Positions 27,001 to 33,000 of a DNA stretch of 64,000 nucleotides are shown here, one piece after another (the first letter of the stretch is position 1; every line of letters begins with the position of its first letter). Location: the NCBI RefSeq assembly GCF_024298765.1, contig NZ_CP101210.1; one strand, 5' to 3'. The position numbers are program-made. The stretch comes from Escherichia coli. Its GTDB lineage: Bacteria > Pseudomonadota > Gammaproteobacteria > Enterobacterales > Enterobacteriaceae.

Positions 27001-30000
27001 GACAATCATTTCATCTTCAGAAGTAGACGAGGCATGAGCATGAAGCGGTATGAAAGACGCTAATGCTGGCAAAAGCGCAGCGAAAGTTATTTGAGTTTTC
27101 ATGAATCACTGATCGTTATGTAAATATTTATATTACGATCGGTGCATAGGCAAAATTATGATCCAGATCACACGTGAATGTAAGTTATTTACAAATTACG
27201 CTAACCTTCTGTCTCCGCTCTTTGCAGCATAAAAGTATGGCGGCGCGTTGTTGAAAGCAGGAGCGGCCGGGTTGTCAGAAAGCTGGTTTGGACGCAAGTA
27301 ATATATAACAACTCTGATTACCGCATACTGTCAGGACAGTATCTACTTGAGCGTCCGCCTTTGGCACAGAGCGGACGATATCACTGAGCTGAAGGTCCGC
27401 TGAGAGCGAGGAGCGGAAGTAAGCATGTATCTGCTAATGCGAAAAATCACTAACGAAACATTGGATCCCCATTGTTGCCGATCTTTAGTGGCGTTCAAGA
27501 TTAGCCCCAATCCTGATTATCATTTGATTACACTGACTGAAATGATATAAAACCTAATTATCTGATATTTGTAGGGGTTTAGTAATGTCACTTCCTGTTC
27601 CTTTTGGTGCAATTGTTACAGTAGTGAAGAAATGCTGGTCTACTCTTACCCAGATAATGCTGATAAAAACTTATCAACTCTCACATGAGCGCTGGGCAGT
27701 GAGACACAGGCTAGGGGCGAGCTGGCATTCCTTAGGGAATTATTTGGAGTACAGTCTACGATTTGCTCAGTTGACAGATAAAGAACCTCGTTGTTCACGT
27801 ATTGCTTTCAGAAGCAAAGAGGAACGACTGCAACAAGTTGAACTTGTTTTTGAAGCCATTGGCAGTGGCTTACGCTACCAAGAAACACTATGCATTCATG
27901 ATGTAAATAACTCACCGATAATATTAACGCTTTCAAATATTCCTACACTTGATGTACTTATTCTAGATGATGGATTCGCATTTACGGTTGAACAGTACCA
28001 GTTAAAATATTGCACGATAAAATTAATGACTGGTGAAAGTATATCTATTGACAATTCGCCCAAATATTCGCTAATGCAAAACTGGTGTCTCAATGATACA
28101 TGGAAACGGCGTTGGGGTATCATCTGGAACTGTAATGCAATTGAATGTGCCCGAAGGCGTATTGCTGAATATTGGAAATGGGGCTTTTGTCTGCCGTTAG
28201 TGGGACGCCCCCCGTTATATTCACCATCGCGAAAAGGTATTCATCTGTTTGAAGCAAAACCGTTACGCTGGTTTATGACACGCCCATGGTGTCTGAATAT
28301 CCAGTTTTGGACGGCAATTTGGTCAGGACTGTTTATTCTCAGCGATGAGAATGTCTTGCAATGGCGCTGGAAAGAGCCACCACAACAAGACTAACTTTCA
28401 CGAAGGCCGTCCGCTCTGAGCGAGGAGCGGACCTCAGTGCTGGTTAGATTAACTAGTCTAATTGTGACTACCTAATTTGAAACGATATAAAAATGGTATG
28501 ATACATGATCACTAATCTTTATCTGGAATATCTCTCGCATCGTAATAATCAATCCCAAGTCCAAAGCTTAACTCAAGCCCCTCAGGACCTCCGTGGATAT
28601 CGCCAACCCCAAATGTATTTGGAGCATTATTATTTCTGAATTTTTCAAGATCATTTTTATTTGGAGGCGATTTGTCGTCATTAGAGAGATCTGGAAGTGG
28701 ATCTAACTCAAAATAATCAACTCCAGCAGGGTTATAGGCAAGGTAAAAATTTCTATAGTTGCCAGGATTTCCTAAATAATGCCCTTCTTCATATTGATAG
28801 AACTTCGAAGAATAGCTCGACTGTAAATAATCAATATCACTTCCAAAATCTTTGAACTTATGTCCAAGGGTTTTTCTCAGATATGGTACTTCAGGATGAA
28901 AATTCTCATCCTTGCTGGTTACGGAATAGAGTATCACTGTGTTATTATTATCATAAACCACTTGCAGATAGAACTTTTTGAAAGAGTAAATATACTCATG
29001 AACCCTCCCATCCTCAGAATGTTCTTCCTTCACGGGAGGGCCAAAAATTGACTCGATGTACTTTATTGACGCTCCGGTGTAAATCACATGAAGATTATCC
29101 TCTGCTTTTTTTTGCAAAAAATTATCTGCGATATGTTGATATAAATCAAACACTCCGTTCAATGCAACAAAATATCCAAGAACAGCAAGAATACCACTCA
29201 AAAAAACAGTAATTAATGATTTTTTAAGTTTTTTAGGGGGATGTGACATAGTTCCTCTCTTTTTGTTTTTTAATTTTTTTGGAGTGTATCATGATTTCTC
29301 TCTTATTTTTTCAAAATTCTATTTATTTCTGAATGCAAAGTAAAACGCTGACATGCAAAAAAGTCATTCTTATTTAAGATTAAGTCAAAAATTTATCGAA
29401 AGACATTCTATTAATCTTACATGAATAGAGCAACGTCCGCATCTGGCACAGGACTGCTGTTGCAGCCCTGGCAACCTTAGACTTCAATCGATTCAGAGAT
29501 CTCTAACGCATCATCGACTTCAATGCCCAGATAACGGACTGTGCTTTCCAGTTTCTTATGGCCTAACAGAAGTTGGATCACCCTGAGATTCTTAGTTTTC
29601 TTGTAAATCAGGTAAGGTTTTGTTCTTCTCAAGGAATGTGTACTGTAAAGCGAATCTTCGAGACCAAGTTTTGCTACCCACCCATGAAAAATTCGGTTGT
29701 ATTGCCGGGTTGATATGTGTTGGTTAGTACCGACCCGAGATCGGAACAAATAGTCTTTACTGCGTAAATTGCCAAGCTTTATCAATGCAGAAACAGCTTC
29801 TCTTGTCCCTTTGGTTATCTCAAATTGGACAGGGCTGCCGGTTTTCTGTTGTAGAACCGTAGCTCTGCTTGAAACAGAGCTACCATATGCAACATCAGAT
29901 ACTTTGAGTTTGACTAGATCACAGCCTCGAAGCTTACTGTCCAAGGCCATGTTGAACAGAGCTAAATCGCGTGTTTTACCTTCCAGTTCAAGTCGGATTC

Positions 30001-33000
30001 GGATACCCCAGATATGAGATATCTGAAGTGGTCTTTTTTGGCCTATGATACGGTCTTTGTTCCACGGTGACGTGTTCATACTCAAATCTCCTGCAATGTG
30101 GGAGATTTGAGTATGGTTGTCCTTATGAGCGAGGCGCGGAAGCTCACTTTAGGGCAATCTAATTCACATGTCAGAGGATTTATAAAAAGAGAATAGTGCA
30201 GATTTTAGGGATACTTACACTTGCTATGGCATACTTTTTGGGACCCCATCAGTTTAGGGATCTGAATCGCCACAGCTTTGGTAGGCACCTGCTTTATGGT
30301 CACGTGCACCCGAAGATCCTGCGGGTACGCATGGGTCACGAAAAGTACGAGTCTACAGAAGTTAATTTACGGTTTTTTGCGCTCGATGTGGCTGCCAGCT
30401 ACCAAGTCCAGTTTACACTGGATACAACTAACGCGCTGTAGCAACTGCGTGGTGGAAGCTGATTAAAGGAGATAATGATGTTCGATGTTGACGATACTGC
30501 ACCCGATACTCCCGCCCCCCGTGAACTCAGTCAGGATGTGCAGGCGCTGATCAACAATGGTCTGGATTTTCTGGATAAAGCCCGTGAAGAGTTGGAGGCC
30601 TCGAAGCCGAAGTTCTCCGTCGTCAGTTTCTGGACTGCGGTCGAGATTTTACTGAAAGTTCCGCTGGCGCACGAACACTGGTCGTTGGTCTGCAGCCCGA
30701 AAAAGCCAATAAAAAAGCAGGCTTACCTAGCCGGTGATTTTCAGTCGGTGACCTACGAAGAAACCCGTGAAAGGCTTAAGGACGTACTTGAAAGACCCCT
30801 AGACAGAGAAACGGACAGTGCTTTTGATAAGGTCAGAAAGCACCGCAACCGCGTAGTTCATTTCTACCACCCCACTTTCACCGAGGCTGAACAACGTCAA
30901 ATACTCAAAGAACAAGCTGACGCCTGGTTTGCCCTGAACCGGTTATTAAGGGATGAATGGAAAGTTATCTTCGGTGTCAAACATAATTGGAAGCTGGCTT
31001 TCGGTGAAACTCGTCTGATTAGGGGAAACAAATTTTATGCCGAGGTGCGGTTTAAACAGGTTAAGCCTGAACTCGAGCAGCTCTCTGAAAAGAATATTCA
31101 AATCGGTAACTGCAATGAGTGCCATCAGCATGCGACGGTAACAGGGACTGAAACGACCGGTAATGAAAACCGTAAGCTTGAAGTTACGCGGTGTAAGGTT
31201 TGCACCAGTGCTGTAAGGCAAATTACCCTAGTTTGTCCAGACTGCGAAATACCTCAATTGCTACCTGAGGGAGATAGTGATTTTGAATGCGAACACTGCG
31301 ACTACACTTCGGATAGGTATAAACTGCTGGATGAGGAGTTGTTCCACAGTGTGGATGAACAGCTACTCTCCGTATTTCCTGCTGGATGTACCAATTGCAT
31401 GACTCCTGAAAGCGTATGTAAATTTGGAGACGGCTATCTTTGCACTCAGTGTTTCATCTATTACACCGAGCTTCATGTATGTGGTTGTTGCGGTCACCTG
31501 AGCGATAGCGTTCCTGAACTGAGCCATATCCGAGGATGTGAATTTTGTGATGGTGACCAACGTTATTTTGATGACTGAATTACCATACATAATCTAGGCT
31601 CTTCAGGGATGGGTTGGACAGTCCGCTCCTGGCACAGAGCGGACTGTCAGATTAGATTCAGACCTGTACTCATTAGCTGATACAAATCAGCCACATATAC
31701 CTGCATTCCAAATAATTTCAGGCAGATATTATCTCCGTGAATCCCCCCGCCACCTTTCCGGTGCGCGGGGTTTTGTCTTTTTTCACCGGGAATACATGTA
31801 TGAATCCGTCTGATGCCATTGAGGCAATTGAAAAACCGCTCTCCTCCCTGCCTTACTCACTTTCCCGTCACATCCTGGAACATCTGCGCAAACTCACCAG
31901 CCACGAACCCGTGCCTGGCATTATGGGTAAAAGCGGGGCCGGTAAATCCTCACTCTGTAATGCACTGTTTCAGGGGGAGGTCACCCCGGTCAGTGCACTC
32001 ATGACAGCGCTTCCCGGACATGCCGCCATCCCTCTGATGACACGCCTGCAGGACGAACTGCGCACGGAGTCTGTCCGCACTCAGACCCGTGAACAGTTTA
32101 CCGGTGCGGTGGACCGGATATTTGACACGGCGGAGAGTGTCTGTGTTGCCTCTGTTGTCCGTACGGCCCTGCGCGCAGTTCGTGACACGGTGGTCTCTGT
32201 TGCCCGCGCGGTATGGAACTGGATTTTCTTCTGAACCCGGTGGTGATGTACCAGGCTGTTGTTACAGATTTTTAACTCCATGAAAACACTATGCAAACGC
32301 AGCTATACCCGGGGTGTCCCCTTGCGTTGTGCTTCCCAAGTTAATAGAATACATCGATCGTTACTATCATATCGATCGTTATAAACGATCGTTTGTAGTA
32401 AATGACCTCCTCCGTGGTTGTCATGAAAATGCGTCTCAGGAAGGTTAAATAATGCACGAAAAGAACATCGCCCTGCTTTGTGATGAAGCCGACCGACTTT
32501 TGCAACTGAACATTAATCTGCTCCGGCAAATGGTTGAGGAGCCAGATGTGTTATCTGACAGTAAGAACGAAAACAGACTGCTTTTTGATAAACAGAAAGC
32601 ACTGAAAAGAATTGAGGAGCTGGAGGGCGAACAAATCAAAACCGCCCGCAGGGAGATGGTGCTGGCTGTTGTCGGCACGATGAAAGCAGGCAAATCAACC
32701 ACCATCAACGCCATTGTGGGGCAGGAAATTCTGCCTAACCGTAACCGCCCCATGACCTCTGTACCGACGCTCATCCGCCACGTTCCCGGAAAAACTGAGC
32801 CGGTTCTCCATCTGGAACATATTCAGCCTGTCCGCAATTTATTAATCACACTGCAGGAAAAACTCGCCACCCCGGCAGGACAGCAGGTCGCACAGACCCT
32901 GCAGCAAACCGGGGATACCCGCGAACTGCTGGATATTCTGACGGATGATGGCTGGCTCAAAAATGAATACCACGGGGAGGAGGAAATCTTTACCGGACTG

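Follow-up and report, generated by a model that had tools for sequence, protein, structure and literature searches.

In core sites of tyrosine recombinases, such as lox, FRT and dif, two binding arms accompany an overlap region, which has to be the same in both partners. The closest described analogues of the system reported here are the pdif modules of Acinetobacter, integrons, and lox/FRT sites with heterospecific spacers, from which it differs in recombinase family, site sequence, architecture, and in having its own minimal enzyme. The mechanism of the Acinetobacter pdif modules has been inferred mainly from comparative genomics (PMC9455709, PMC11705084), and anti-phage systems are among the cassettes of chromosomal integrons (10.1101/2024.07.02.601686). 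The locus analyzed here lies in a 64-kb stretch of Escherichia coli contig NZ_CP101210.1 (hereafter the window), in which palindromic elements at 21.6 kb and between 27 and 32 kb separate genes in a cassette-like array with an embedded gene for a 200-aa tyrosine recombinase. These repeated hairpins look like the crossover sites of that recombinase.

As read from the sequence, each site comprises inverted 8-bp arms, GTCCGCTC and GAGCGGAC, around an asymmetric 8-bp spacer. Two spacer classes exist, A (YTGGCACA) and B (TGAGCGAG or AGAGCGAG), and an arms-only scan recovered no A/B hybrids; the B spacer approximates an inverted A spacer with two central changes. When 2.16 Mb of fetched sequence was scanned for the arms only, the spacer measured 8 bp in 48 of 55 distinct sites, lengths of 6, 7, 9, and 10 bp accounting for 2, 1, 4, and 0 sites, respectively. 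The spacer core is 92–100% conserved within each class, above most arm positions, and arm deviations are mostly uncompensated: 182 single and 38 non-Watson–Crick double changes (220 in total), as compared with 22 compensated ones. A center better conserved than its arms, together with uncompensated arm changes, is the opposite of what a structural hairpin (a terminator, a repetitive extragenic palindromic [REP] element, or an RNA stem) would show, and fits a tyrosine-recombinase core site. Like lox/FRT-type core sites, these have two inverted arms flanking an asymmetric spacer within the 6–8-bp range; comparative evidence places the crossover in the spacer and indicates spacer identity between partners.

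Fifteen enterobacterial loci contain 73 such sites, as compared with 0–1 in shuffled sequence. Where an A and a B site form a composite junction, the distance from the start of A to the start of B is 42 bp in 10 of 11 cases; the linker between them is variable save for the CTGAAG adjoining B. Cassettes occupy the interval from a B site to the next A site. Orientation relative to the recombinase gene is nearly invariant, being shared by all 74 sites in genome and plasmid loci and by 73 of 77 in viral contigs (147 of 151 together).

The copies listed in an earlier note on this DNA, made from its sequence alone, are all real: seven sites were recovered where it had placed them, plus a degenerate A remnant near 21.6 kb, and every copy is intergenic, as that note had described. 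The palindrome GTCCGC-N12-GCGGAC, with at most one mismatch, matches five times in the window against 0.13 expected, a number reached by none of 100 shuffles. The TGGCACA "loop" it pointed out marks one of the two site classes, and the embedded small tyrosine recombinase is likewise borne out (Pfam PF00589, E = 7e-19). A further TTAGATTA/AATCTAA motif said to follow the hairpins is present at approximately 28445, 30160, and 31650 and is not a conserved part of the element at other loci, where flanks beyond about 3 nt are unconserved; the copy at 31650 is island backbone upstream of the GTPase gene. The two site classes, the composite A-linker-B junctions, and the start of the array at 21.6 kb, including the iron-uptake operon, had gone unnoticed.

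The window corresponds to the aspV pathogenicity island (PAI-aspV) of uropathogenic E. coli CFT073 in reverse orientation, and its 27.1–31.8 kb interval is 100% identical to CFT073, Nissle 1917, ABU 83972, and ATCC 25922. Annotated genes run from a TonB-dependent receptor/ABC transporter operon (21.8–27.1 kb, minus strand) through a 269-aa open reading frame (ORF), an ETEC_3214-domain gene, a 200-aa "site-specific integrase," and a 367-aa ORF to a CP4-like island backbone of GTPase, dynamin, and Ag43 type. Interleaved with the sites, the array begins with a degenerate A-linker-B at 21.6 kb and the iron-uptake operon, followed by A 27353, a linker, B 27395, the 269-aa gene, and B 28409; it continues with the ETEC_3214 gene, A 29435, the recombinase, B 30118, the HEC-08 gene, and A 31621, and ends at the island backbone. 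The individual features are as follows.

21591..21656, plus strand: degenerate A-linker-B junction at the start of the array; strain AGR6128 has the same left flank, left arm, and spacer with other cargo
21633–21656, plus strand: B site GTCCGTTG TGAGCGAA CAGCGGAC, with a degenerate A remnant about 42 bp upstream
21785..27102, minus strand: large cassette with an ABC transporter and TonB-dependent receptor (iron-uptake-type operon, by annotation), bracketed by B 21633 and A 27353
27353..27376, plus strand: A site GTCCGCCT TTGGCACA GAGCGGAC, left junction of the 4.3-kb insertion
27377..27394, plus strand: 18-nt linker GATATCACTGAGCTGAAG joining A and B of the composite junction
27395..27418, plus strand: B site GTCCGCTG AGAGCGAG GAGCGGAA
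27585..28394, plus strand: cassette gene of 269 aa, without a family match
28409..28432, plus strand: lone B site of perfect consensus, GTCCGCTC TGAGCGAG GAGCGGAC
28512..29249, minus strand: cassette gene for an ETEC_3214-domain protein, 245 aa
29435..29458, plus strand: A site GTCCGCAT CTGGCACA GGACTGCT at the 3′ end of the recombinase module, inner arm degenerate; homology to other loci starts at 29429–29434
29477..30079, minus strand: small tyrosine recombinase, 200 aa from ATG (WP_001305361.1), catalytic domain only, with intact R-K-H-R-H-Y
30078..30114, minus strand: palindrome with a 15-bp stem over the Shine–Dalgarno sequence and start codon of the recombinase gene (z = −7.2), recurring in homologues
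30118..30141, plus strand: B site TGTCCTTA TGAGCGAG GCGCGGAA at the 5′ end of the recombinase module, inner arm degenerate; homology to other loci stops at 30132–30140
30475..31578, plus strand: cassette gene of 367 aa for a candidate anti-phage defense protein (PADLOC HEC-08, DUF3644; E = 1e-173)
31621..31644, plus strand: A site of perfect consensus, GTCCGCTC CTGGCACA GAGCGGAC, right junction abutting the backbone upstream of the GTPase gene

The arms of the site at 31621 reach 12 bp (over 31617–31648), and the copies at 29435 and 30118 each retain one arm and the center. Within 21591–27376, bracketing of the iron-uptake-type operon by B 21633 and A 27353 indicates that the array is not defense-only and begins 6 kb upstream of the originally reported interval.

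Evidence that these sites mark exchange of DNA comes from other strains. Strain ChlosBP-23-1 contains an empty site, in which the TonB-receptor operon leads through a single A site to the GTPase gene. This A site combines the left arm and variant first spacer bases of the site at 27353 with the right flank of the site at 31621; 27377–31644 is therefore a discrete 4.3-kb insertion between directly repeated A sites. The unit comprises three cargo genes and the recombinase, placed at an A site that would otherwise have the TonB-receptor operon and the GTPase gene as its immediate neighbors. A cassette has been added in AGR6128, where linker-B, a DRT type 1 cassette, and another A site intervene between the A site ending the HEC-08 cassette and the GTPase flank. 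The third polymorphism is a relocation: one 945-bp gene, together with its B and A sites, occurs at 99.3% identity in a lambdoid prophage of DC71 and in a CP4-like island of AREA_499, upstream of the GTPase gene. Its left arm and spacer move with the cassette, and the right arm (AAGCGGAC versus GAGCGGAC) stays with the backbone. The earlier note had proposed comparing cassette content among strains; by these three cases, content between sites does vary.

At the B junction at 21.6 kb, with the iron operon in the window and dynamin-like genes in AGR6128, identity stops at the last spacer base, and in each of the 12 pairs of junctions compared, identity gives way to divergence inside the spacer or at its edge. 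Across 5426 complete E. coli genomes, BLAST matches end or start at 27376, 27384, 29429–29434, 30134–30140, 31621–31623, and 31644. About 1000 of these genomes match as far as 27376 and diverge beyond it, and in many genomes matches begin at 31621–31623 or finish at 31644; at a prophage locus, matches begin or end at the A site adjoining a DUF977 gene. The suggestion of recombination sites in a cassette-array-like layout is thus strongly supported by breakpoints, the empty site, and added or moved cassettes, as well as by co-conservation with the recombinase and fixed orientation.

Sites also occur in E. coli K-12. In the Qin prophage of MG1655, an A site lies at 1,645,981, just after relB, and a B site at 1,646,972, after flxA, which puts flxA in cassette position. 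The outer flanks of this Qin interval are identical to those on IncY plasmid pEC00704_2, where they enclose betT, other genes, and the recombinase. No site was found upstream of yfjP in K-12 CP4-57, so the landing site is not in every CP4-like island.

The recombinase belongs to the tyrosine recombinase superfamily (PF00589) by both fold and the R-K-H-R-H/W-Y residues; R53, K81, H150, R153, H176, and Y185 are invariant among 25 homologues. Foldseek searches with its AlphaFold model (predicted local distance difference test score 84) matched the catalytic domains of XerA, XerH, Tn1549 Int, Cre, lambda Int, and IntI at 15–22% identity, with E-values down to 4e-8. Against the PDB, the sequence itself returned no match at E ≤ 0.001, relatives being recovered only by fold search, and it falls far under the cut-off of every curated family searched, including Xer, IntI, and FimB/E.

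Homologues with 59–97% identity occupy at least 596 loci in species-representative genomes of Gamma- and Betaproteobacteria. The recombinase occurs in 985 of the 5426 E. coli genomes, in 406 plasmid records, in 61 IMG/VR contigs (prophage-derived), and in chromosomes; isolated phage genomes in INPHARED contain no close homologue, the best being 58% identical in a 6.8-kb contig. At every enterobacterial locus the module has the same geometry, with an A site 22 nt after the stop codon and a B site about 57 nt upstream of the gene, and similarity between loci ends there. Among distant homologues, a related GCCAR-RAGCGGNC motif lies approximately 40–100 nt downstream of the stop codon in 15 of 69 loci. 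This conservation of a dedicated recombinase with the sites argues, indirectly, against the host XerC/XerD as the agent; the protein scores far below the Xer equivalog cut-offs.

Three observations concern the recombinase gene and its surroundings. Positions 1–18.6 kb of Pantoea ananatis plasmid pPANA10 carry an identical recombinase (WP_001305361.1) beside a hypothetical gene of the same size (1101 bp) in an HEC-08-like position, within an array of 11 sites that also includes DapA-like, GNAT, DMT-transporter, and P-loop NTPase genes; this indicates recent intergeneric transfer. The palindrome over the start of the gene, at 30078–30114, has the form ATACTCAAATCTCC-N8-GGGAGATTTGAGTAT, with the 15-bp stem and DNA-fold z-score given above. 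Among 66 distinct 5′ leaders of homologues, the predicted fold pairs the whole Shine–Dalgarno sequence in 34, mostly in an anti-Shine–Dalgarno/Shine–Dalgarno hairpin with a lineage-specific stem sequence, which suggests that expression of the recombinase is controlled at translation or through an operator. An 81-aa ORF (30196–30441; MGHEKYEST…), situated between B 30118 and the HEC-08 gene, shows a weak likeness to the C-terminus of tyrosine recombinases (BLASTP E = 5e-4 against the neighboring recombinase) and may be a remnant of a second recombinase gene.

We interpret the hairpins as double-stranded core recombination sites, in classes A and B, for the embedded 200-aa recombinase, serving cassette excision, integration, and exchange, and put the probability of this reading at roughly three in four. 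The recombinase would bind the arms as a dimer and swap strands within the 8-bp spacer, A recombining with A and B with B. A × B reactions should be blocked because the spacers have next to nothing in common when aligned in parallel and, when aligned antiparallel, disagree at two central positions. Hotspots in mobile-element backbones would have a B and an A site at their opposite ends; a cassette would consist of B, one or more genes, and A, with neighbors joined by A, an 18-nt linker, and B. Direct A × A or B × B recombination would excise a circle with one composite junction, and the reverse reaction would insert such a circle at any A or B. Since backbones offer a B…A pair, two crossovers with another element, one A × A and one B × B, would swap the intervening cargo, as in recombinase-mediated cassette exchange. 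Under this model, the expected junction at an empty site would end in ACTTGAGCGTCCGCCTTTGGCACAGAGCGGAC joined to TGTCAGATTAGATTCAG, and that of the circle in GGTTGGACAGTCCGCTCCTGGCACAGAGCGGAC joined to GATATCACTGAGCTGAAGG.

Several points weigh against the reading of these hairpins as recombinase sites. Excision, circles, and catalysis are drawn from genome comparison, and the crossover intervals are resolved by few polymorphisms. The site scanner demanded a recognizable spacer, which inflates spacer conservation, an effect that the arms-only scans mitigate. The inner arms adjoining the recombinase gene are degenerate, sites at distant betaproteobacterial loci are only partly identified, and the recombinase has no recognizable core-binding domain, which bears on how the arms would be recognized. 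The B site could be a second crossover site or an accessory site; in the latter case the 42-bp spacing, equal to four helical turns, would suit cooperative binding. The composite junction occurs in 1688 of the E. coli genomes as compared with 985 for the recombinase, so action in trans must be assumed for the many site-bearing genomes that lack it. Finally, sites of 24 bp and composites of 66 bp are long enough for low-frequency short-homology recombination, by which similar junctions could form.

The last two points would also fit an arrangement in which RecA, Red, or RecET exchanges modules at conserved "boundary sequences," the hairpins perhaps being weak terminators or binding sites for a protein, with the recombinase a passenger or engaged in another job such as inversion or dimer resolution. 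Lambdoid phages are, moreover, known for mosaic boundaries. Such an arrangement leaves unexplained the two strict spacer classes, the fixed 8-bp length, and the fixed orientation; it is also at odds with the constant distances of the sites on both sides of the recombinase gene across genera, and with arms that stay with their own flanks as homology switches in the spacer in 12 of 12 comparisons. The site centers are more conserved than most arm positions, and no T-run follows the hairpins. We therefore consider exchange by homology at such boundaries unlikely. The same features speak against the transcriptional insulators raised in the earlier note: arm changes are non-compensatory, the loop is better kept than the stem, and the absence of a T-run after any copy, with 220 uncompensated versus 22 compensated changes, led us to reject an intrinsic terminator.

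Folding of single strands in the manner of attC would give the sites a different role. The A and B spacers are complementary save at two positions, and a 24-bp imperfect stem with an 18-nt loop, formed by the constant linker, can be drawn for the composite by direct reading; its mismatched spacers would stand in for a core site, with conjugation or replication supplying the single-stranded DNA from which cassettes would be captured, in keeping with the integron-like logic of the array. On both strands, however, DNA folding favors a pair of small, separate hairpins, and the stability of the composite is unremarkable (z = −1.5 and −1.7). A lone A or a lone B also acts as a junction without a partner, arm changes do not compensate one another, and the recombinase is without the features of an integron integrase (TIGR02249, 15.9 bits against a cut-off of 265), all of which makes this quite improbable. 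Still further down the scale, and in our judgment highly improbable, are selfish intergenic repeats unrelated to cassette mobility, such as REP, enterobacterial repetitive intergenic consensus (ERIC), or miniature inverted-repeat transposable elements, or an RNA-level stabilizer or terminator. The elements are palindromic and intergenic, and one copy contains the GTGAGCG of the ERIC core; against this, each genome carries only 1–5 copies, 1688 of 5426 genomes have the composite junction, invariably inside mobile-element hotspots, loops are nearly invariant, and stems show no compensatory changes. This distribution does not correspond to the ubiquitous intergenic repeat that the earlier note had envisaged as a refutation. 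The ERIC resemblance it mentioned is a 7–8-nt coincidence, the ERIC2 primer sequence being unmatched at up to three mismatches, and an Rfam scan of 18–36 kb at permissive E-values returned no RNA family. Occupying 1–5 places per genome and lacking an ERIC2 or Rfam match, the sites do not belong with REP elements and bacterial interspersed mosaic elements, ERIC, or BoxC, no explicit scan having been made with the consensus sequences of REP and BoxC. Among the interpretations offered in that note, then, the recombination-site option is the one that stands, and the insulator and REP/ERIC options fall away.

Other identities were considered and rejected. The dif site has the form GGTGCGCATAA-TGTATA-TTATGTTAAAT, and neither the arms nor the 8-bp spacer (8 bp in 48 of 55 distinct sites) of the elements described here are related to it. 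The recombinase is not an integron integrase, being 200 aa long with the catalytic domain only and scoring as given above, nor is it a FimB/FimE invertase (NF007371, 25 bits against a cut-off of 222). An attC architecture does not apply, since the consensus is GTCCGCTC-N8-GAGCGGAC with no conserved GTTRRRY and the composite does not fold into one long hairpin. A sigma-54 promoter reading of TGGCAC-N5-… was discarded on inspection, there being no TTGC at −12.

Defense genes are prominent among the cargo: HEC-08/DUF3644 in the window, and PD-T7-1, DRT1, and Septu (PtuA). Other cassettes hold several genes without a family, the iron operon of the window, and the DapA-like, GNAT, and DMT genes of the Pantoea plasmid, with genes in either orientation. 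Neither the 269-aa gene nor the ETEC_3214 gene has a PADLOC or PHROG function; from their position in a defense-rich cassette array, both are candidate defense genes.

A broader reading, which we judge evenly poised, is that these loci form an integron- or pdif-like platform in which a catalytic-domain-only recombinase with two incompatible lox-like duplex sites adds, removes, and exchanges cassettes, often with anti-phage genes, among lambdoid prophages, CP4-type islands, and plasmids of Gamma- and Betaproteobacteria. Landing sites would then be present in thousands of E. coli genomes, including Qin of K-12, and the platform would amount to natural recombinase-mediated cassette exchange. Full-text literature searches, including literal site sequences, found no description of the recombinase or the site system, with incomplete coverage of subscription journals, such that a prior description is possible; the system appears to be a new form of recombinase-driven cassette platform. 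It is present in the well-studied strains CFT073, Nissle 1917, ATCC 25922, and ABU 83972.

Among E. coli defense islands, surveys describe some with "unclear mechanisms of mobilization," which have just an integrase or a recombinase gene (PMC10121019). How defense genes pass so rapidly from one prophage, satellite, island, or plasmid to another is still a question in the field, and a dedicated recombinase with defined sites would, if true, provide a concrete and testable mechanism for part of this traffic. Cassettes delimited at base-pair resolution would likewise supply guilt-by-association defense candidates, including the 269-aa and ETEC_3214 genes and unannotated cassette genes elsewhere, and the system would account for the mosaic makeup of hotspots both in prophages of the Qin and Rac types and in CP4-like islands, where they lie upstream of yeeP-family GTPase genes. 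Genome engineering might also profit from such a recombinase, which is compact (200 aa) and would come with two orthogonal sites.

Two further features of the window lie outside the sites and cassettes discussed above. The GTPase-family and dynamin-family genes after the last A site (31737–34848) are frameshifted pseudogenes in the CFT073 annotation. Immediately upstream of the start of the TonB-dependent receptor gene, an AT-rich palindrome at 27107–27144 has 23-nt arms that are 87% complementary and may be an operator, for example of Fur type.

Set beside described systems, FimB and FimE of the same species resemble the recombinase in size (about 200 aa) and in consisting of a catalytic domain only. 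Sequence similarity to them is weak, and Fim sites are 9-bp inverted repeats flanking an invertible promoter, whereas here sites of one class are direct repeats and strains differ by insertions and deletions rather than by inversions. The likeness to integrons lies in a tyrosine recombinase beside arrayed, promoter-independent cassettes, each closed by a palindromic site, with a primary landing site in the backbone. Unlike integrons, the system has no IntI and no core-binding domain, and its sites lack the R″/L″/L′/R′ layout and GTTRRRY core; they look like lox-type duplex sites that fold as small separate hairpins, in two classes predicted to be mutually incompatible. Genes in either orientation also leave no room for the logic of a common Pc promoter.

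With the pdif modules, the system shares discrete modules bounded by short sites of two arms and a spacer, flanking sites of opposite kind or orientation, organization in arrays, and occurrence on several replicons. The pdif sites resemble dif, having XerC and XerD arms of 11 bp and a 6-bp spacer, and are acted on by the chromosomal XerC/XerD of the host; here the arms are GTCCGCTC and GAGCGGAC, the spacer is 8 bp, and a dedicated 200-aa recombinase is present. Modules are joined by composite junctions of A, 18 nt, and B in place of the single shared site of pdif, and the hosts are Enterobacterales and other Gamma- and Betaproteobacteria, in prophages, islands, and plasmids, as compared with Acinetobacter plasmids. 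The site itself is closest in form to those of Cre/loxP and Flp/FRT, in which inverted arms surround an asymmetric 8-bp spacer that sets orientation and compatibility, and the predicted fold of the recombinase matches the Cre catalytic domain. However, the arms are 8–12 bp rather than 13 bp, identity to Cre is only about 17%, and the N-terminal DNA-clamping domain is absent. Cre and Flp naturally serve plasmid maintenance, not cassette traffic; it is engineered cassette exchange that the present arrangement resembles in this respect, with two spacer variants flanking a segment.

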